A stretch of 64,000 nt of DNA from Candidatus Omnitrophota bacterium (GCA_013285735.1 JABDGZ010000005.1:3834-67833); one strand, 5' to 3'; positions 3,912 through 43,259 are shown, counted from the first letter of the stretch. Translations and numbers: made by a program. Notes: generated by a model from the sequence alone, not told the origin.

Positions 3912-4640
3912 ATGCTTGCCCCTAGTGACGATATAAAAGTTTTTTCGTTTGATATTTTTGATACAACAGTGACTCGCTTTGTCGCTGATCCGAGGGATGT
4001 TTTCAGGCTTTTGCAAGAAACGCTTAGCGGTGAGGCTTTTAAAGAGTTTCCTGCTGTTATTCGATGTAATTTTGCTGCGTTACGTTTTAAAGCAGCGTTG
4101 CATGCCCGTATCGAAGGTCTATCTCAAGGCAGGCAAGACATAGGGATCGCAGATATATATATGAAACTTCAAGCTTTTTGTCCTATTGATGACAATCAAT
4201 TGCATCAACTGATGGAAATGGAGTTCGCACAGGAATTGGCTTGTATTTATCCCGTGGCATGGACAGTGAGCGAAATAAATAATTTAAGAAAGCTTAATAA
4301 ACGGATTGTTTTTACGTCAGATATGTACCTGCCTTTGGATCTGATTGAAAAGATTTTGATGAAGGCGAATGTCTATGTTCCCTCACAGGATCATATTTAT
4401 CTTTCCAATAAACTGGGGATGACTAAGTTAAGTGGAAAATTGTTTAAATATATTTTAGAAAATGAAGAATGCCTTCCCCAGGAACTCTGTCATTATGGAG
4501 ATGATCTGCACAGCGATGTTTATATACCCTTCAAGATGGGGATTAGTGATTATGTTTTGGATGATAGGCAAAGAAAAAGAGTATTAAGATTCCATCATTT
4601 AAAAAGGATAAGAGATTATTTTAACAAATTGTGCTTTTAG
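3912..4640 (+). CDS. HAD-superfamily hydrolase
   Basis: Motif I 'FDIFDTTVTR' (DxDxT), motif II 'VFTSDM', motif IV 'GDDLHSD'. Confidence 0.6.
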   Translation: MLAPSDDIKVFSFDIFDTTVTRFVADPRDVFRLLQETLSGEAFKEFPAVIRCNFAALRFKAALHARIEGLSQGRQDIGIADIYMKLQAFCPIDDNQLHQLMEMEFAQELACIYPVAWTVSEINNLRKLNKRIVFTSDMYLPLDLIEKILMKANVYVPSQDHIYLSNKLGMTKLSGKLFKYILENEECLPQELCHYGDDLHSDVYIPFKMGISDYVLDDRQRKRVLRFHHLKRIRDYFNKLCF

Positions 4641-6012: not shown

Positions 6013-7493
6013 TGGAAAAAGAAGAAATACGTACAGAAAAGGTATATTTAAAATTTCCCATGGATCATGCGGCTTTATTTGCTTGCCTGCTAGGATTTGT
6101 GCTATGGGCGTATCTTTTACATTTGAAGTATGTGCTTTTTGCATTTTGTGATTGGGACATGGCTTTATATGCTCAAGCGATGCAGAGTTTGTGCCATGGG
6201 ACAAGCTATGCCTCATTATTTGGGACCAGTTTTTTAGTGGACCATTCGCACTATATCGCTTTTTTACTCACACCCATTTATGCGCTTTTCCCTCATCCTT
6301 TGACGTTAATCAATTTAGAGCTTTTATCATTCTTTGGAGGAGGATTTGTGTTTTATAAAATTGCTTCAAAAACCGTCGGCGAGGTGACGGCGTTTATCTT
6401 AATGATTATTTATTTAATGCATCCTGCCAATATTTTTATGTTATTTTTTGAGTTTCATTTTGAGAGCCTGGCCCCGGGATTTATTTTCTTAATGTTTTAT
6501 TTTTATGGTGAGAAAAAATGGGTCCCTTTTATGATCACGGCATTGATTATATTGCTGATCAAAGAAAACATGGCATTGATCGTCGCTATGTTTGGGGTGT
6601 ATGGAATGCTCTTTAATAAGGAAAATCGATGGCGGTGGGGAGGGATTGTCTTTTGTATTGGTGTTTTATATTTTGTGGTCAATATGTTTGTCCTTATCCC
6701 GTATTTTCGCAGAGATTTAGTGCATTCATCCAGTATGTATTGGGTGATCTGTTATAACCACTTTGGCAATACGCCCCAAGAAATTCTGTTTAATTTATTC
6801 TTTCATCCCATCCAGGCACTCAAAGGGGTATGTACCGCTGTTAACTTAAATTATATTAAAAATTGTATCGGGCCTTTTTTATTCTTATCTATTTTTGGTT
6901 CTCAATCTTTAATAGGACTGCCCATATTAGCTCAAAATCTTTTGTCGAGTGTTCCTACCTTGCATACGATTTATTATCATTATGCCGCGACTCTCATTCC
7001 TTTTGCAGCGATGGGTGCTCTTGAGGCCCTTGGTTTTATTAAAACACGCGTCCGTCTGGGTGTGTTCATGGTTTTTGTTGTGCTGATTGCTTATACGGCG
7101 GGGGGCTTTGTATCTGATTATTGGTTGGCCTGGAAGTATAATATCAGGAGTTGGGACGATTCTTTGGCATCTGTCCGCCAATCCATGATTGAACAAATTC
7201 CCAAAGACTCTTCGGTTGTAGCCAGTTTTGATTTCTTAAGCCACCTGACTGACCACAAAAATCTTTATGCTTTTTATAGTGTTTGGAGGGACGCTAATGA
7301 TTTTACCGGCGAACGTCCCTTTAAGATGCCTGGTAATATTCAATATGCTTTAATTGACTTTGATGATCCATGGCTGTTGGCTGAATTGCATGCTCACCCG
7401 AGGGAAGCCTTGAGCCATATGGATAAATTCTTTATTCGATATAAATGGAAAATAAAATCAAGGCATGGGAGGATTATTTTATTCAAACGATGA
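6009..7493 (+). CDS. DUF2079 family multi-pass membrane protein (paralog 1)
   Basis: 'DWDMALYAQAMQSLCHGT...FLVDHSHYIAFLLTPIYALFPHPLTL', 'FEFHFESLAP', 'LIKENMAL'; many TM segments. ATG 6009 overlaps the upstream stop (ATGA). Confidence 0.7.
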   Translation: MMEKEEIRTEKVYLKFPMDHAALFACLLGFVLWAYLLHLKYVLFAFCDWDMALYAQAMQSLCHGTSYASLFGTSFLVDHSHYIAFLLTPIYALFPHPLTLINLELLSFFGGGFVFYKIASKTVGEVTAFILMIIYLMHPANIFMLFFEFHFESLAPGFIFLMFYFYGEKKWVPFMITALIILLIKENMALIVAMFGVYGMLFNKENRWRWGGIVFCIGVLYFVVNMFVLIPYFRRDLVHSSSMYWVICYNHFGNTPQEILFNLFFHPIQALKGVCTAVNLNYIKNCIGPFLFLSIFGSQSLIGLPILAQNLLSSVPTLHTIYYHYAATLIPFAAMGALEALGFIKTRVRLGVFMVFVVLIAYTAGGFVSDYWLAWKYNIRSWDDSLASVRQSMIEQIPKDSSVVASFDFLSHLTDHKNLYAFYSVWRDANDFTGERPFKMPGNIQYALIDFDDPWLLAELHAHPREALSHMDKFFIRYKWKIKSRHGRIILFKR

Positions 7494-37699: not shown

Positions 37700-37980
37700 T
37701 CCCCTGTAGCTCAGTCGGTAGAGCAACTGGCTGTTACGTAAAGTTAGCAGCCTTTAGCGGAAACGCTAGAGTGATAAGTGGGCTAAGTCAGGGAAACCCA
37801 TTAGTTTAATGGGCAATCCTGAGCTAGCATCTATCAGTTAAATGGTAGAGGGCAAGTGCAGAGACTTTACACCCACCGCCCACAGTCTTTTTAGACCGGG
37901 CGAAGAGAAAGTCCGACTCCTGTCGTAAGATAGGTCAGATTGTAACCAGTATGTCCGAGGTTCGAGCCCTCGCGGGGGAG
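37700..37980 (+). tRNA. tRNA-Asn(GUU) interrupted in the anticodon loop by a 208-nt intron
   Basis: Exon 1 (37700-37734): acceptor TCCCCTG, D-arm GCTC-AGTCGGTA-GAGC, anticodon stem ACTGG, then CTGT. Exon 2 (37943-37980): TAA, CCAGT, variable ATGTC, T-arm CGAGG-TTCGAGC-CCTCG, acceptor CGGGGGA, discriminator G. The spliced loop CTGTTAA gives anticodon GTT. CCA is not encoded. Confidence 0.85.
37735..37942 (+). ncRNA. group I intron (IC3-like, no ORF)
   Basis: P1: exon GGCTGT pairs with intron GCAGCC (37747-37752), with a U.G pair at the splice site. P10: GTTA (37743-37746) pairs with exon-2 TAAC. The terminal nucleotide is G (37942). Conserved core strings: TCAGGGAAACC (37788), GGCAATCCTGAGC (37812), GTGCAGAGACT (37856), GAGAAAGTCC (37905). 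Confidence 0.8.
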
Positions 37981-37988
37981 CTTCTTCT

Positions 37989-38039
37989 AGAAAGTCTGCA
38001 ACATATTGAAATTTAATAAGTTGCAGACTTTCTATTTTT
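37989..38039 (+). terminator. rho-independent terminator after the tRNA
   Basis: 14-bp perfect stem AGAAAGTCTGCAAC (37989-38002) / GTTGCAGACTTTCT (38020-38033), followed by ATTTTT. Confidence 0.65.
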
Positions 38040-38050
38040 ATTACGTCGAG

Positions 38051-38065
38051 AAAATCCGAACTTTT
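38051..38065. repeat. inverted partial copy (L1) of the cassette-end core
   Basis: AAAATCCGAACTTTT is the reverse complement of the AAAAGTTCGGATTTT core found in the four R elements. Lies 11 nt after the tRNA terminator. Confidence 0.6.
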
Positions 38066-38116
38066 GAATTCGAAATTACGATTGCGGTGTCATTTTTGTT
38101 GTGTTATAGTTCTTTT

Positions 38117-38368
38117 ATGCCGACGATACTTGAAATTTTAGGGTAGAGACTGTTTTTTTATGCGAATGAAAATAACGAGCCAATACATATTCATGCCCGT
38201 AAAGCAGGGATGGAATGTAAATATTGGATTGACGTTAAAGGGTTTGATATCACCGAAGCATATTCCTTTGGCTTGAAGGAAAAAGAAAAAAGGGAAATCC
38301 GTAGAATTATTTTTGATCATTTTGATTACATTGTAGATAAATGGAATGAATTTGAGAGGAGAAAATAA
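38117..38368 (+). pseudogene. DUF4160 family protein gene with in-frame TAG at codon 10
   Basis: Translation 'MPTILEILG*RLFFYANENNEPIHIHARKAGMECKYWIDVKGFDITEAYSFGLKEKEKREIRRIIFDHFDYIVDKWNEFERRK'. The TAG is at 38144-38146. The ORF abuts the DUF2442 start, the usual pair arrangement. A TTGCGG-17-TATAGT promoter-like site lies upstream. Confidence 0.6.
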
Positions 38369-38626
38369 ATGAAACCAATACATAGAATTCAAAGAATAGC
38401 TTTTTCAGGCTCTCAATTGAAGATAAAAGTGGATGGTAAAGAAGTTGTTATTAATTTAACCAAAGTTTCTCCAAGATTACTTAAGGCTTCGAAAAAAGAA
38501 CGTGAAGCTTATGAGATTTCTCCTTCTGGGTATGGTATACATTGGCCGCTGATTGATGAAGATCTTTCCGTTGATTCACTTTTAGGGATTAAACATTTGC
38601 CTTCCAAAGAATTTGTTAGTAAATAA
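38369..38626 (+). CDS. DUF2442 family protein
   Basis: 85 aa. 'YGIHWPLIDEDLSVDSLLG' is the DUF2442 hallmark. AGGAG RBS upstream. Confidence 0.7.
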   Translation: MKPIHRIQRIAFSGSQLKIKVDGKEVVINLTKVSPRLLKASKKEREAYEISPSGYGIHWPLIDEDLSVDSLLGIKHLPSKEFVSK

Positions 38627-39011
38627 CAATATTTTTTAGCCTGATAAACACGCCATAAACCTGGCAAACGCGCCATTTGCTAAGAAGCAAAAGCATCTGT
38701 TAATCGCGCAAAAATTGCTCGATTAGTGCGCGATTGATAGTTGAGACATTTATGGGACATTTGGGACATAGGGAACTTAATGGACTCATAAAGGACTCAA
38801 AGGGCTCAATATATCGGACACATCAGACAATGGAGACATAAAGAGGACAAAGGGGACATTTGAGCAAATGGTTCATAATTGGATCAAATAGCTCTATTAT
38901 TCTGGCGATTGCTTGGCGATTAGCTTCTTAAAGTGCACGAATTGCACGATTTTTGCACGTTTTTGTATTGCGCATTATGCGCATTTAATGCGCAAAAGAT
39001 TTATCTGAATT
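38627..39011. repeat. non-coding phased-word module, copy 1
   Basis: Runs of G/C-rich words, each followed by an A/T tract and each reiterated 2-3 times at 9-13-nt spacing (examples: GGGACATTT, GGCGATT, GCACG+T-run, TGCGCATT). A homologous copy lies at 39895-40361. Confidence 0.8.
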
Positions 39012-39104
39012 AAAAATAATCCATCTATCTCCATCTTTAGCTTTGGTCAGCAGGCCTAGTGTTACCTCATAAGAAAAGTTCGGATTTCTGGGGGACTCGC
39101 GGAG
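39012..39104. repeat. cassette-end element R-A
   Basis: AAAAATAATCCATCTATC...AAAAGTTCGGATTTCTGGGGGACTCGCGGAG. One of 4 copies. The minus strand reads LRESPRNPNFSYEVTLGLLTKAKDGDRWIIFNSDKSFAH*. Confidence 0.85.
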
Positions 39105-39115
39105 TTTTCACAAAT

Positions 39116-39147
39116 AGCTGTAAGTAAATAACTTACAGCTGTTTTTT
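39116..39147 (+). terminator. hairpin/terminator after R-A
   Basis: AGCTGTAAGT (39116-39125) / ACTTACAGCT (39131-39140), followed by GTTTTTT. Confidence 0.55.
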
Positions 39148-39216
39148 ATTTATTCCGACGAGAGAATTCACCTAAAAGTGAGTTTTTGAAAATAATACTT
39201 CCCAAAATGGGAAATT

Positions 39217-39228
39217 ATGGTATATTTA
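39217..39228 (+). promoter_or_regulatory. shared cassette promoter-like 12-mer ATGGTATATTTA (higBA copy)
   Basis: An identical 12-mer lies at 40544-40555 upstream of brnT. It contains the -10-like TATATT 7 nt before the higB GTG. The adjacent inverted repeat TTCCC-N5-GGGAA (39199-39213) is a possible operator. Confidence 0.35.
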
Positions 39229-39232
39229 AATC

Positions 39233-39532
39233 GTGAGAGTAATATCGGTTAAGAAGTTAAAAGATTTTTGGAGTAAGCCGGCTTACCGTGATTCCGAGCA
39301 GGCCCTCCGAGCTTGGTATGCGGAAGCTAAAAAGGGTAATTATTTTCACTCTCACCAGATTAAACAGATTTACCGGAAAGCTAGTATTGTCGGTAATGGA
39401 CGAATCGTATTTAATATTTGTGGGAATAAATATCGTTTAGTGGTGGCAGTTAAATATGAGTTTAAAATTTTTTATATTCGTTTCATTGGAACACACAGTC
39501 AGTATGACAATATTGATGTAAAGGAGATATGA
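39233..39532 (+). CDS. higB: type II toxin HigB (RelE/HigB mRNA interferase)
   Basis: 'FNICGNKYRLVVAVKYEFKIFYIRFIGTHSQYDNI' is the HigB signature. GTG start. Confidence 0.8.
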   Translation: MRVISVKKLKDFWSKPAYRDSEQALRAWYAEAKKGNYFHSHQIKQIYRKASIVGNGRIVFNICGNKYRLVVAVKYEFKIFYIRFIGTHSQYDNIDVKEI

Positions 39533-39894
39533 TTATGGAAATAAAAATTCATCCAATTAATTCGAAGAAGGATTACGAAAAAGCCTTAAGCACAATTGAC
39601 CGCTTATGGGATGCCAAATCGGGTACCGAGGAGGGCGATACTTTAGACGTGCTCACTACATTAGTTGAAGCTTACGAAAACAAGAATTACCCCATGCTGC
39701 CTCCCAATCCCGTTGAAGCTATTAAATTTCGTATGGAGCAGATGGGAATTGGGAAGGCTGACGTTGCCAATATTCTTGGTGGGGCCAATAGGGTTTCTGA
39801 AATTTTGCATAAAAAACGGAAATTAAGTTTGAGGATGATTCGTAATTTGCATGATAAATTAAAAATTCCCTATGAATCTTTAATACCTGCTTAG
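39529..39894 (+). CDS. higA: type II antitoxin HigA (HTH-XRE)
   Basis: ATGA overlap with the higB stop. 'DYEKALSTIDRLWDAKSGTEEGDTLDVLTTLVEAYE' plus a C-terminal HTH 'KADVANILGGANRVSEIL'. Confidence 0.8.
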   Translation: MIMEIKIHPINSKKDYEKALSTIDRLWDAKSGTEEGDTLDVLTTLVEAYENKNYPMLPPNPVEAIKFRMEQMGIGKADVANILGGANRVSEILHKKRKLSLRMIRNLHDKLKIPYESLIPA

Positions 39895-40361
39895 TTTCAA
39901 CCCGCCAACTTGACAAACACGCCATAAATACGCCAAACGCGCCTACCAAGGGGCATTAAAGGAGCAAAAGGGGCAGTGTTAATCGAGCAAAAATTGCCCG
40001 ATTAGTGCGTGATTAATATTTGAGACATTTATGGGACATTTGGGACATAGGAAGCTTAAAGGACTCAAAGGGCTCAATATATCGGACGTTTATCGGACAT
40101 ATTAGACAATGGAGACATAAAGGGGCCATTTGCGCAAATGGTTCATAATTAGCTTAAATGGCCCAGTAGAAACTTGACATAAACCCGACAAACACGACAT
40201 TTTGAAATGGGCCAGAATGGGGCCAAAATGGCCCTATTATGTTGGCGATTCTGGCGATTATTTGGCGATTAGATTCTAAAGTGCACGAATTGCAGGATTA
40301 TTGCACGTTTTTATATTGCGCATTATGCGCATTTAGTGCGCAAAGGTGCTCATGTTATTTC
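39895..40361. repeat. non-coding phased-word module, copy 2
   Basis: Collinear with 38627-39011, sharing the same word order: ACACGCCATAAA..., GAGACATTTATGGGACATTTGGGACATAGG, GGCGATT x3, GTGCACGAATTGCA..., TTGCGCATTATGCGCATTTA. Carries ~90 extra nt (GGGCCA/GGCCC words) around 40150-40240. Confidence 0.8.
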
Positions 40362-40450
40362 AAAATAATCCACCGGTCGCCAGTTTTTGAATTGGTAAGA
40401 CCTAGAATTATTTCATAAGAAAAGTTCGGATTTCTAGGGGACGTGGGGAG
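40362..40450. repeat. cassette-end element R-B
   Basis: AAAATAATCCACCGG...AAAAGTTCGGATTTCTAGGGGACGTGGGGAG. The minus strand reads LPTSPRNPNFSYEIILGLTNSKTGDRWIILK*. Confidence 0.85.
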
Positions 40451-40470
40451 TTTGATAGTCGAAGAAGGGT

Positions 40471-40483
40471 AAAATCCGAACTT
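40471..40483. repeat. inverted partial copy (L3) of the cassette-end core
   Basis: AAAATCCGAACTT lies 20 nt after R-B, forming an inverted repeat with AAGTTCGGATTT of R-B. Confidence 0.6.
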
Positions 40484-40490
40484 CTTGGTA

Positions 40491-40524
40491 AAAAAGCCGT
40501 CCTTAATACAAGGATGGCTTTTTT
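40491..40524 (+). terminator. rho-independent terminator
   Basis: AAAAAGCCGTCC-loop-GGATGGCTTTTTT. Confidence 0.55.
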
Positions 40525-40565
40525 ATTGAATAATGCTAAGAATATGGTATATTTACATTGTACAT

Positions 40566-40859
40566 ATGGATGATCTTAAATTCGATTGGGACAAAAATAA
40601 GGCAGTGCTTAATAAAAAGAAACATGGTGTTTCTTTTGAAGAAGCTGTCACGGTATTTTATGACGATGATGCTTTAGAATTTCATGATCCTGATCATTCT
40701 GAGAGTGAAGACAGATTTTTTATGGTAGGTTTGAGTTTTCGCACAAGGGTTTTGCTGGTTTCTCATTGTATAAGAGAAGCTGGATCATTAATTAGAATCA
40801 TTTCGGCCAGAAAAGCAACCAAGCAAGAAGCTGGGAAATATTGGGAGGAAAAGACATGA
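40566..40859 (+). CDS. brnT: type II toxin BrnT (DUF497)
   Basis: 'FDWDKNKAVLNKKKHGVSFEEAVTVFYDDDALEFHDPDHSESEDRFFMVG...IRIISARKATKQE'. Start at ATG 40566. Confidence 0.8.
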   Translation: MDDLKFDWDKNKAVLNKKKHGVSFEEAVTVFYDDDALEFHDPDHSESEDRFFMVGLSFRTRVLLVSHCIREAGSLIRIISARKATKQEAGKYWEEKT

Positions 40860-41077
40860 GAGCAGAATATGATCTATCAAAAATGAAGTTTCGTCGTAAT
40901 CCTTATGCTGCCCGGTTGAAAAGGCCAGTTACAATCCGTTTGGGCGCAGATATTATTAGCTATTTTAAGTCAATGGCTAAAGAAATGGGTGTGCCCTATC
41001 AGAATTTAATTAACTTATATTTAAGGGATTGTGTACAGGCCCATCGTAAGATAGGGTGGATATCTAATTTAAAATAA
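40856..41077 (+). CDS. brnA: type II antitoxin BrnA
   Basis: ATGA overlap with the brnT stop. GGGAGG RBS. 'VTIRLGADIISYFKSMAKEMGVPYQNLINLYLRDC' fits the BrnA/CopG-like pattern. Confidence 0.75.
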   Translation: MRAEYDLSKMKFRRNPYAARLKRPVTIRLGADIISYFKSMAKEMGVPYQNLINLYLRDCVQAHRKIGWISNLK

Positions 41078-41159
41078 TCCATCTATCTCTGTTTTTAGCA
41101 TTGGTTAGGCCAAGGATCACTTCATATGAAAAGTTCGGATTTCTGGGGGACTCGCGGAG
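41071..41159. repeat. cassette-end element R-C
   Basis: Starts within the brnA stop region. The minus strand reads LRESPRNPNFSYEVILGLTNAKNRDRWIILN*. Confidence 0.85.
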
Positions 41160-41163
41160 CCAT

Positions 41164-41207
41164 ATAATAAGAAAGCCCATCAGATTTATGATGGGCTTTC
41201 TTATTAT
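41164..41207. terminator. perfect 19-bp hairpin (bidirectional terminator-like)
   Basis: ATAATAAGAAAGCCCATCA (41164-41182), 6-nt loop, TGATGGGCTTTCTTATTAT (41189-41207). Confidence 0.5.
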
Positions 41208-41402
41208 ATTATTGGCGGGGGAGCGAAAGCTCGAAGTGTGTGCTCTTTTTAAGGGTTTGAAAAGATAGTTATTGATTGAGAAGAATTAATTTCGAAAATA
41301 TTTTTAATTTTCGTCGCTGTATATAGTTTGAAAAACGGCGGGATATATGTTATGGTTTACGGTTACCGAGAATTTTGAGATATTTTAATATTGGAAGGTT
41401 AC

Positions 41403-42698
41403 ATGAACTGTGGTTCAATTAAAGTATTTATTTTTGTCTTTTTTATGTTTTTGACGCTCTTAACCGGCTGCCCTAAGTCTTTTGCGCAACCTGTCTCGCC
41501 CACAGGAGGGGATGATTCTTCCATAAGTAAGGGAACTTCAGATGACCAAGCCAGTGAAGCTAGTGCCGATGAGTCATTGAAGCAGATTCATGATTTGGAA
41601 TTGAAAATGGAGGAGAATAGCAAGCGCTTGGACGCTCTGGAAAAGGCTATCAATCAAGCAAATACAGAAAATGCCCCTGCTGTTGAAACTGCACCCGATA
41701 CCAATACGATGATTCAACAAGCCTCCGCACAGGCAGCCCCGGACCAAACAGCTCCTGCTTCCCAGACAGCTCCCCGTGAGCAAGTTTCTTCAATCAAAGA
41801 TTCCTCTCGATTTGATCCGATATCAATGCGCATTATTTCAGACCCTCTATATTTACCGCTTAAGGGACAATTTTATGGTTCGACCGAATATGATTTTTCC
41901 AGGAATAGTTACAGTCAGGATAATTATTTAGGTAAAGAATATGCATATGATAAAAGCGATACCAATGAAGTTTCTCAGGATTTAGAGTATGGTTTGACCG
42001 ATGATTTGACCCTAAGATTTTATGATGAATTTCAAGATGATAGAAGGTATGTTGCAGGTGAAGGCGAATATTTATTTATTGGTTTTATTAATCCGGAATT
42101 TGGTGCCACTTATAGGATGATTGATCAGAAGCAATATCCAGTAGATGTTGATTTAATAGCTAATTATTACCCAGATGTTTTTAGTGAGAAAGCGGCAACT
42201 CCTGACAAAACAGGAACAGTGGCATCGGGCGGTCAGAAGATTACTTTGAGGGAAGCAGTAGGTCGAGAAATGAGAAATTTAACGATCCAGGGTTTTGTTG
42301 AAGTAGAATATCAGGGTAAGGAAAAAACTGAAATTTTGGCAGACGATAGGGATGCTGAAGACAAAGCGAGCTGGGCATATGTCTTTGGGTTAAATACCCA
42401 AATCCGTATAACGGATCGTTTTTCAGTCAATTTTGGGGGGGCATATACAGTTGCAAATAACATGGATTATACAAGTAGCACGGGGCTTTCAGGTATTCAT
42501 GTTCCAGCCGATTATAGTGATTTCGACACATCTTTAAACTATCAATTTATTCCTGATAGGCTGGTTGGTAGTTTAACTTATACCCGTAATGTTGACGATG
42601 ACAGAAAATATTTGTACGCGAACGTAGTTCACGATGAAATAGATAGGAAATATAGCCAGGATATTTTTGGGATAAAGTTTTCATATCTTTTTAATTAA
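41403..42698 (+). CDS. lipoprotein with coiled-coil N-region and beta-rich C-region (possible outer-membrane protein)
   Basis: Signal peptide plus lipobox 'LLTGC'. Low-complexity Q/A/P linker. Alternating aromatic pattern, ending 'FGIKFSYLFN'. No family recognised. Confidence 0.4.
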   Translation: MNCGSIKVFIFVFFMFLTLLTGCPKSFAQPVSPTGGDDSSISKGTSDDQASEASADESLKQIHDLELKMEENSKRLDALEKAINQANTENAPAVETAPDTNTMIQQASAQAAPDQTAPASQTAPREQVSSIKDSSRFDPISMRIISDPLYLPLKGQFYGSTEYDFSRNSYSQDNYLGKEYAYDKSDTNEVSQDLEYGLTDDLTLRFYDEFQDDRRYVAGEGEYLFIGFINPEFGATYRMIDQKQYPVDVDLIANYYPDVFSEKAATPDKTGTVASGGQKITLREAVGREMRNLTIQGFVEVEYQGKEKTEILADDRDAEDKASWAYVFGLNTQIRITDRFSVNFGGAYTVANNMDYTSSTGLSGIHVPADYSDFDTSLNYQFIPDRLVGSLTYTRNVDDDRKYLYANVVHDEIDRKYSQDIFGIKFSYLFN

Positions 42699-42786
42699 AA
42701 ATAATCCATCTATTTTTGCTTTTACCATTCGTAAGTCCCAAAATGACCTCATAGAAAAAGTTCGGATTTCTGGGGGACTCGGGGAG
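42697..42786. repeat. cassette-end element R-D
   Basis: Overlaps the lipoprotein stop codon. The minus strand reads LPESPRNPNFFYEVILGLTNGKSKNRWIIFN*. Confidence 0.85.
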
Positions 42787-42879
42787 CCAATTTGATTAAG
42801 CCCGTTGTGAGTGTTATACCTGCAGCGAGTTTACTTATTATATGGAAGCAAGTGTGAGTATTTTATTTGCTATGTCGTT

Positions 42880-43074
42880 ATGAGTCGTTGGAAGCGTCTA
42901 GAAAATCTTGAGAGAAATTTGTCACGAATGTCAGTTAAAGAAATTAAAATAGAACTGGCATATTGGCGGCAACATGCAAATTTATTAGCTCCTTCGATTA
43001 AGAAATTAGCGATGAAGCGCGTTTTTAAGATTGAAAGAATATTAAAGCAAAAAGAAAATGAAGATATTATTTAA
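42880..43074 (+). CDS. hypothetical 64-aa basic protein
   Basis: 'MSRWKRLENLERNLSRMSVKEIKIELAYWRQH...'. No recognisable domain. The start is chosen at an internal ATG. Confidence 0.3.
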   Translation: MSRWKRLENLERNLSRMSVKEIKIELAYWRQHANLLAPSIKKLAMKRVFKIERILKQKENEDII

Positions 43075-43158
43075 AGGTTTAGTTGTAAAGCTAGTTTCAG
43101 AATTACTTTTTTATTTTATTATCCAATTGTAAAACATGTCCACGTAGTGGAGTCATTT

Positions 43159-43190
43159 AGCCCGTCAGAATTATTCTGACGGGCTTTTTG
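43159..43190 (+). terminator. rho-independent terminator
   Basis: AGCCCGTCAGAA-loop-TTCTGACGGGCT followed by TTTTTG. Confidence 0.6.
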
Positions 43191-43259
43191 TTTACCTTGA
43201 CAGTTAACTTAATGAGACTAGTATATTTTAGAAGTTAACAATTTATTACGGGGCAAATA

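Follow-up and report, generated by a model that had tools for sequence, protein, structure and literature searches.

The window analysed here, a 64,000-nucleotide stretch from a Candidatus Omnitrophota bacterium (GCA_013285735.1 JABDGZ010000005.1:3834-67833), carries four short co-oriented units directly behind a tRNA-Asn(GUU) gene, each closed by a copy of the same repeat of ~95 bp, here termed R. From sequence comparison, this array is likely to have arisen by tandem accretion of four recombinase-less integrative units at the chromosomal attachment site (attB) used by one family of tRNA-Asn-targeting large serine recombinases (LSRs). On the same comparison, R is read as the last 31 codons and the stop codon of the LSR gene together with the P arm of the attachment site of the element (attP), and each unit as the two ends of an integrated element (a P′-type left end, promoter, cargo, and then the tail plus P arm) with no LSR between them.

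Repeat finding, alignment, and direct reading agree on four direct R copies, all in the + strand orientation. An earlier sequence-only reading of the window had described four co-oriented units behind the tRNA, each ending in one element with a sharp right edge, followed by a hairpin after copies R-A, R-B, and R-C and by none after R-D, and this layout was confirmed. Its remark that the element touches or overlaps the cargo stop codons of units 3 and 4 also proved correct, as the stops of brnA (41075-41077) and of a 435-aa open reading frame (ORF) (42696-42698) lie inside R. Between copies, identity is 72-86% in the left 43 nt and 79-84% in the right 56 nt. An invariant 16-mer (AAAAGTTCGGATTTCT) is common to all four, and homology is lost abruptly after ...GGAG. 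When a 22-mer core was searched with up to 3 mismatches, the four R sites were the sole matches in 64 kb (0.00 expected from shuffles), and all of them stand at unit ends rather than being scattered without relation to unit boundaries.

Six-frame translation revealed that R is open on the minus strand in all four copies and ends in a stop codon, encoding a 31-residue peptide, L[RP][ET]SPRNPNF[SF]YE[VI]ILGLTNxKxxDRWII[FL][NK]; the only indel among the window copies is 3 nt long. Scanning one genome set and one metagenome set with the core yielded about 75 distinct R copies, hosted by Omnitrophota, Planctomycetota, and unbinned contigs. In the main subfamily, codon-position entropy over codons 12-31 amounts to 0.53/0.28/1.11 (62 ungapped unique copies), and the synonymous share of differing codons is 55.6% in the tail frame versus 5-17% in shifted frames of the same strand. 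Since variation is concentrated at third codon positions and the changes are mostly synonymous, R is a minus-strand protein-coding sequence under purifying selection, present or recent. The intact 31-codon frame with its stop is kept in ~62 of the 75 unique copies, and truncated or degenerate copies occur in four of the fetched loci (L001, L018, L039, and L113). Two other identities for R were considered and rejected. As an independent small protein gene it would have neither a conserved start codon nor upstream coding sequence, the region upstream of the tail frame being a variable hairpin; as a pseudo-3′ end derived wholly from a tRNA it would account for the T-arm-like core, whereas conservation in the other 65 nt is of the codon type. 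The viral contigs searched contained no copy of the core and so give no sign that the autonomous elements are catalogued viruses.

A profile of the 31-aa peptide retrieved only two small mis-called ORFs from a set of 5.8 billion proteins, and the connection to LSRs was found by extending the tail frame upstream in every fetched locus. In L060, the frame runs on for >250 codons, and its translation is the C-terminal half of an LSR, in which motifs of the recombinase domain, a zinc ribbon (CxxC...YYHC), and a coiled coil can be recognized, closing as ...RKPFSFIAEGLLCPRK/LPSHPQNPNF...RWVIFN and stop, with the tail in frame behind the slash. The tail is also in frame on LSR P0006 (locus L129), where it directly abuts a convergent brnA gene. 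The LSR homologues are ~488 aa long, and P0007-P0027 contain the Resolvase, Recombinase, and Zn_ribbon_recom domains (PF00239, PF07508, and PF13408); one homologue is labelled 'cassette chromosome recombinase B' by its source. Most of the others end at the tail boundary, with ...WLPR, ...WLPG, or ...WLPL before the stop codon, and further homologues read on as REDSNLGPSG or REGSNLGQTGYDLT, which is the antisense tRNA T-arm translated. The genomes that bear these LSRs are bacterial metagenome-assembled genomes (MAGs) assigned to Omnitrophica and Planctomycetota. Because the tail is the in-frame C-terminus of an LSR in L060 and L129, R is not a free-standing recombination site; it resembled no known site because most of it is protein-coding sequence on the opposite strand. 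The sequence-only reading had raised the possibility of an undescribed cassette-capture system: its discrete units stand, and the element itself is better described as an LSR gene 3′ end plus P arm. An LSR located 8.5 kb from R in L004 was considered as a complete example and rejected, being 24% identical to this family and having its 3′ end beyond the fetched stretch.

Three types of junction define the attachment sites. The LSR body is joined to R in the metagenome loci L060 and L129, and direct reading of L128, L125, and L130 showed it joined to tRNA-Asn. Of these, L128 is an Omnitrophica MAG (GCA_015233335.1) with the same Tex-DnaX-RecR-tRNA-Asn order as the window, including a group I intron in the tRNA gene, and a RecR protein 84% identical; its LSR body is followed without a gap by the reverse-complemented 3′ end of a tRNA-Asn gene, identical in sequence to that of the window (...GTCCGAGGTTCGAGCCCTCGCGGGGGAG/CTTTCG...). 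In this relative, the LSR occupies the window's own locus. Within the window, tblastn with eight diverse LSRs found no serine recombinase in the 64 kb, and a Pfam scan of 20 further window ORFs (most of 230-434 aa) found no recombinase domain; two of the 20 had no Pfam match and the matched ones are housekeeping genes only. The earlier observation that no recombinase is in view is thus borne out, and the enzyme that it had proposed to seek outside the window is encoded, in L128, at this very site. Among the enzymes with the tRNA/body junction are P0011 (L125) and P0012 from a Ca. Wunengus MAG, in which the tRNA-Asn called by ARAGORN spans the stop codon of the LSR. In many other loci R is joined to a non-LSR flank, and all three junction types break at one ...GGAG point. 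The set of body/R, tRNA/body, and R/other junctions carries the sequence signature of attP, attL, and attR, respectively, which places attP within the LSR gene itself, upstream of the last 31 codons, and makes the tRNA-Asn 3′ end attB.

The P arm (AAGTTCGGATTTCTGGGGGACTCGCGGAG) is a look-alike of the tRNA T-loop plus the acceptor 3′ strand, and the ~27 nt that close R (GTTCGGATTTCTGGGGGACTCGCGGAG) are similar to the tRNA sequence GTTCGAGCCCTCGCGGGGGAG. LSR attachment sites are short (~40-50 bp) and quasi-palindromic, and the outer motif of an attP half-site lies ~5 bp further out than that of attB. From the GTTCG motif to the boundary there are 27 nt in R and 21 nt in the tRNA, and this 6-nt greater spacing appears to fit the rule. 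Two further sets of LSR loci deserve mention. P0011 was read on 17 contigs, and the three fetched (L125, L126, and L127) end 14 nt past its stop codon, inside the antisense tRNA, a pattern pointing to a break in assembly at the att core, for which alternative junctions or a repeat would be responsible; L125 also carries DnaB, DnaG-type primase, and Bro-N genes and a group II intron. In addition, a distant LSR (21% identical) abuts tRNA-Asn in a high-GC genome (L087:932-2664, also L083 and L084), with AAAATCCGAAC 10 nt after the CCA in L087; the T-loop-like motif is kept despite a very different base composition.

The left ends of the units match the part of the LSR gene that precedes the tail. 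In 75 unique junctions, the first 3 nt after GGAG are CCA (26), TTT (23), or CTT (7) in 56 cases, and these triplets are complementary to the codon, Trp or Lys, that stands before LP in the LSR. A hairpin comes next, at the position of a hairpin in the LSR 3′ coding sequence that is encoded by ...RKPFSFIAEGL... (aligned with L060, L128, L125, L130, and L131), and 12 of its 15 pairs keep their pairing through changes on both sides. Read on the minus strand, the left end of unit 3 gives KKFGFYPSSTIK/LP, like the end of an LSR gene, and that of unit 4 gives RKPIINLMGFLIIW/L, compared with RKPFSFIAEGLSHTSW/L in the LSR. The order boundary, hairpin, T-run, and conserved box recurs after R copies or tRNA-Asn in L072, L103, L108, L113, L039, and L075. 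Unit 1 begins immediately 3′ of the tRNA, at 37981; the sequence-only reading recognized the unit and started it at 38041, taking the hairpin at 37988-38034 for a tRNA terminator. Since the same architecture follows R-A, and R copies or tRNA-Asn elsewhere, this hairpin is assigned to unit 1 as its left end.

In many, though not all, left ends part of the core recurs in inverted orientation as A′ (AAAATCCGAAC), at a distance from the boundary of 8-22 nt or, where it lies past the hairpin, of ~70 nt. In the window A′ is present in units 1 and 3, lost in unit 2, and never seen in unit 4. In many units (the window, L103, L108, L113, L039, and L075), a conserved box, CCGTCGA(C/G)AAAATCCGAAC, stands ~70 nt past the boundary beyond the hairpin, and from the box of unit 2 a 14-nt core has been cleanly deleted; the box may be a second motif bound by the recombinase or an operator. 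A homologue of the unit 2 left end travels with higBA in L014 and L113, and a near-identical copy of the unit 3 left end stands before a different cargo in L005.

Relatives carrying the same locus differ in the content and order of their units, and fixed content common to all of them, which would have told against the cassette reading, is not what they show. Six other genomes with this locus were fetched, a seventh locus (L133) being the window's own strain. In L014 (RecR 96% identical), tRNA-Asn is followed by the higBA unit, R, a 6.7-kb stretch with DUF4160/DUF2442, and R. L113 (92%) has first a 209-bp unit that ends in 19 nt copied from the tRNA end, then an R unit, a BrnT-like unit with a shortened R, and a higBA unit whose R is truncated and fused to an SSB gene. 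In L128 (84%), the LSR follows the tRNA; L109 (70%) has a 4.6-kb unit and R; and L072 (64%) has an intron-less tRNA, DUF4160/DUF2442, R, and then a different unit. The left hairpin of the higBA unit stays with it at all three of its junctions, with the tRNA in L014, with R-A in the window, and with a short R in L113. A brnA-R segment (three-way alignment, mean column identity 87%) adjoins an LSR body in L129 and has different hairpins as neighbours in the window and L106. That unit content and order change exactly at R boundaries argues against both fixed relics and a dispersed repeat. In RecR-forward coordinates of L113, 19-nt copies of the tRNA 3′ end (TCGAGCCCTCGCGGGGGAG) replace R at 2794-2812 and 6784-6802, and an R copy at 4490-4504 is 9 nt shorter between core and GGAG, which is the tRNA-type spacing.

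Coordinates of the array and its host tRNA gene are collected in the table below.

Table. Features of the tRNA-Asn locus and of the four units in the window.
Feature	Position	Strand	Details
tRNA-Asn(GUU) gene with group I intron inside	37700-37980	+	Rfam RF00028 at 37725-37935, 76 bits
Proposed B arm of attB	37959-37980	+	last 22 nt of tRNA, GGTTCGAGCCCTCGCGGGGGAG; LSR body abuts identical sequence in L128
Unit 1 left (P′-type) end	37981-38065	+	CTT; hairpin 37988-38034; box CGTCGAGAAAATCCGAACTTTT at 38044-38065 holding inverted core A′ (38050-38065)
Unit 1 cargo: DUF4160 + DUF2442	38117-38626	+	Pfam
Phased module 1	38630-39005		chain of short arrays, 9-11-bp periods
R-A	39008-39104	tail frame on −	coding segment LRESPRNPNFSYEVTLGLLTKAKDGDRWIIFN, stop displaced to 38982; P arm 39078-39104
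Unit 2 left end	39105-39169	+	TTT; hairpin 39116-39140; box remnant 39155-39169 without A′ core
Unit 2 cargo: higB + partner ORF	39233-39532; 39529-39894	+	Pfam HigB_toxin, 4.6e-30
Phased module 2	39895-40354		77-79% identical to module 1
R-B	40357-40450	tail frame on −	tail ORF LPTSPRNPNFSYEIILGLTNSKTGDRWIILK with stop, plus P arm (together 40355-40450)
Unit 3 left end	40451-40524	+	TTT; GATAGTCGAAGAAGGGT; A′ core 40471-40483; hairpin 40495-40519
Unit 3 cargo: brnT + brnA (BrnA/CopG)	40533-41077	+	Pfam
R-C	41066-41159	tail frame on −	tail ORF LRESPRNPNFSYEVILGLTNAKNRDRWIILN with stop, plus P arm (together 41064-41159)
Unit 4 left end	41160-41215	+	CCA (Trp codon complement); hairpin 41162-41209
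Unit 4 cargo: 435-aa ORF	41391-42698	+	signal/lipobox-like N-terminus; no Pfam family
R-D	42693-42786	tail frame on −	tail ORF LPESPRNPNFFYEVILGLTNGKSKNRWIIFN with stop, plus P arm (together 42691-42786)
Right flank after last R copy	42787-43250	+	opens CCAAT as other P′ ends; without hairpin, without closing R

The split tRNA gene, which follows Tex, DnaX, and RecR in the window and precedes the four units, was missed by plain ARAGORN and in intron mode was reported at 37700-37981 with the label Leu(taa). As its exons match the intron-less tRNA-Asn(gtt) of L072 and the tRNA-Asn(GUU) genes of related loci, it is assigned to tRNA-Asn(GUU). The group I intron sits in the anticodon loop; it is common to L014, L113, L109, and L128 (tRNA-Asn gene at L128:840-1430), contains a 116-aa ORF in L128, and is absent from the orthologous tRNA of L072 (L072:1365-1439). 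At the other end of the array, the right flank contains a 64-aa ORF without a family (42880-43074) and a terminator at ~43159-43185; no homologue of this flank was found among the fetched loci. It may represent the B′ side that originally lay beside the tRNA, or else an incomplete fifth unit lacking R.

The units measure 0.7-1.6 kb, and three of the four carry toxin-antitoxin-type pairs. Pfam upheld the cargo annotations proposed earlier (DUF4160/DUF2442, higBA, brnTA, and the 435-aa ORF, the last without a family). The DUF4160 gene of unit 1 (38117-38368) is probably a pseudogene, with an in-frame TAG at 38144-38146; the L072 ortholog is intact, and the pair adjoins tRNA-Asn there. Homologues of the unit 2 cargo with 87-96% identity occur in L014, L113, and L036, and none of the 435-aa ORF was found in any fetched locus. 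The phased modules of units 1 and 2 are composed of arrays with 2-3 copies each of a different 9-11-bp unit (e.g., TAAAGGACTCA, TGGCGATTAGCT, TTGCACGATTT, and AAATGGGGCCA), and pieces of them recur beside R copies in L113 and L039; by their sequence they look like stacked protein-binding sites at helical phasing. Among the cargo found beside R elsewhere are toxin-antitoxin genes (BrnT/BrnA, RelE, MqsA-like and HTH antitoxins, and DUF6290), defence genes (McrBC and a Cap15-type receptor), and assorted accessory genes.

A plausible mechanism for this organization can be proposed. With attP inside the LSR gene, the P arm and the 31 codons would form R, and the P′ arm would be the preceding part of the gene, that is, the Trp or Lys codon and the hairpin. 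Recombination with attB would set the LSR body beside the tRNA, reading antisense into it and ending as ...WLPR or similar, and would leave the tail behind at the opposite end of the element. Acting in trans, an LSR may then insert, excise, or co-mobilize the units in the manner of cis-mobilizable elements (CIMEs), and the occurrence of the same units at different positions and in different orders in L014, L113, L072, and the window would be in keeping with such trans-mobilization. R may be kept intact as recombination could turn any copy into the C-terminal end of an LSR, the hairpin, having displaced the native flank, may also act as terminator of the tRNA or of the unit before it, and the toxin-antitoxin cargo may help the units to persist. 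A bolder extension, to which we give only tentative credence, is that a self-splitting bacterial LSR doubles as an integron-like cassette platform: the tail, returned by any R copy, could sense the recombination state (e.g., by biasing integration versus excision), and spare tails would make mini-units co-mobilizable.

Several points weigh against tandem accretion as set out here. LSRs normally recombine attP with attB only, and the entry of a second unit into an occupied site (attL/attR) would not be accounted for by this rule. In the LSR-body class, symmetry between the P and P′ arms is weak. Identical cargo occurs with different left ends (unit 3 versus L106), which needs extra recombination or a less simple unit boundary. 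No excised circle, unoccupied attB, or polymorphism between strains came to light; exact look-ups of RecR and PqiA gave only two short contigs of the same strain, from one run and identical to the window. In the AlphaFold model of P0006, the body has a mean predicted local distance difference test (pLDDT) score of 78, and the tail region (residues 356-393) scores below 50 and is uninformative, so that the predicted structure would support no specific role for the tail. Finally, the units may be inert remnants, with a nonsense codon in one cargo and the A′ box lost in one unit.

This last point leads to the strongest competing explanation, in which four full LSR elements integrated serially and then lost the recombinase and most of their genes, leaving immobile units with addictive toxin-antitoxin genes and a right-end scar. 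The failure to find an LSR in the window, the nonsense codon in the DUF4160 gene, the deletion of the A′ box in unit 2, and the truncated or degenerate R copies mentioned above are all as such decay would predict. However, the left ends are precise, with the complement of a Trp or Lys codon followed by a covarying hairpin, rather than random deletion breakpoints; the higBA unit keeps its own left end at three array positions in three relatives; and most unique R copies still hold an intact 31-codon frame and stop. We therefore regard decay alone as rather unlikely, and accretion of recombinase-less units as the better account of the array.

A cluster of attC sites lacking an integron-integrase (CALIN), with R as the attC site of a tyrosine integron integrase encoded elsewhere, would suit the small, co-oriented units of ORFs plus a 3′ repeat and their frequent toxin-antitoxin cargo, and the sequence-only reading had drawn this likeness, as well as one to Acinetobacter pdif modules; the resemblance in layout and cargo is real, and it does not extend to the site type or the recombinase family. 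Neither strand of the four R copies folds better than shuffles (z +0.4 to +1.2), no R″/L″-L′/R′ palindrome is present, and in single-stranded DNA folding only R-B joined with the downstream A′ forms a stem. The GTTCGGA motif lies 20 nt inside the boundary rather than at it and does not fit the G/TTRRRY core site, and R itself codes for part of a serine recombinase; together these points make this explanation highly improbable. Equally little weight is given to R as a repetitive extragenic palindromic (REP) sequence, a miniature inverted-repeat transposable element (MITE), or a 3′ untranslated or terminator RNA element that happens to lie behind genes: R does fall within the 3′ untranslated part of every + strand unit, with a terminator-like hairpin behind it, yet its four copies in 64 kb all stand at unit ends, its codon periodicity is on the opposite strand, no Rfam family matches it, and alone it has no stable fold. 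Least credible of all are Xer/dif-type modules of the pdif kind, since despite the small toxin-antitoxin-rich modules, short conserved boundary sites, and lack of a dedicated recombinase nearby, there is no 28-bp 11-6-11 site (the element having earlier been judged, correctly, to be neither attC nor dif), the ~95-bp repeats are all direct rather than alternating, and the link to the LSR gene explains the repeat in full.

With regard to known systems, the stacking of integrative elements, and of derivatives without a recombinase, at one tRNA gene has been described before, and the CIME concept comes from the Streptococcus ICESt elements. As in such arrays, where some members have no integrase of their own, the units of the window stand side by side at one tRNA 3′ attB, with att-derived repeats; in common with CIMEs, they have two att-derived ends and no recombinase and lie at an attB used by an autonomous relative (L128). 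Unlike in those systems, the repeat is mostly a coding piece of the recombinase rather than a copy of the tRNA end, and the units are very small. Tandem arrays of integrative genetic elements at tRNA genes have been described (PMC7192596). The nearest LSR analogue for stacking is staphylococcal cassette chromosome mec (SCCmec) with related ccr islands. In these, LSRs insert at the 3′ end of rlmH (orfX), and pseudo-SCC cassettes stack between direct repeats. An LSR, the conserved 3′ end of a gene, and tandem recombinase-less cassettes are thus shared with the window, whereas in SCCmec the target is a protein gene, the repeats are short copies of the gene end, and ccr is not split by integration. 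Integrons and CALINs share short co-oriented units of an ORF plus a 3′ site, toxin-antitoxin pairs, and variable content and order, and differ in the attC fold, the GTTRRRY boundary, IntI, and the family and chemistry of the recombinase.

An attachment site within a recombinase gene has precedents elsewhere. In the suicidal integrases of archaeal viruses and plasmids, of the type found in Sulfolobus spindle-shaped virus (SSV), att lies inside the integrase gene, and integration at a tRNA gene partitions the gene to the element ends (PMC8371274). The LSR described here likewise has its att site inside the recombinase ORF; the SSV-type enzymes are tyrosine recombinases, archaeal, and destroyed by integration, whereas this enzyme is a serine recombinase, bacterial, and loses only a 31-residue tail, with its recognised domains intact. 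The mycobacteriophages BPs and Brujita, in which attP lies inside a coding sequence and the free and integrated forms differ in their C-terminus (PMC3694055), are the closest precedent for a C-terminus that changes with the integration state. In those phages, it is a repressor gene that is split, integration is by a tyrosine integrase, and the part cut off serves as a degradation tag. What appears unusual in the present case is the enzyme class for a tRNA target, namely an LSR, and the location of the attachment site within the recombinase gene. A full-text literature search found no description of the arrangement, which is weak evidence for its absence.

If correct, this interpretation would have several implications. 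A review published in 2021 calls the att-in-integrase-gene architecture exclusive to Archaea (PMC8371274), and the present case would extend it from archaeal tyrosine to bacterial serine integrases. In a survey from 2020, tRNA gene targeting was not known for serine integrases (PMC7192596), so that a widespread tRNA-targeting LSR clade would be added. Natural attP/attB pairs would be readable from sequence, which is the type of information used for LSR genome-engineering tools. In uncultivated Omnitrophota, sub-kilobase recombinase-less cassettes would accumulate and reshuffle at one chromosomal site, giving rise to a layout that resembles an integron and has a different origin.

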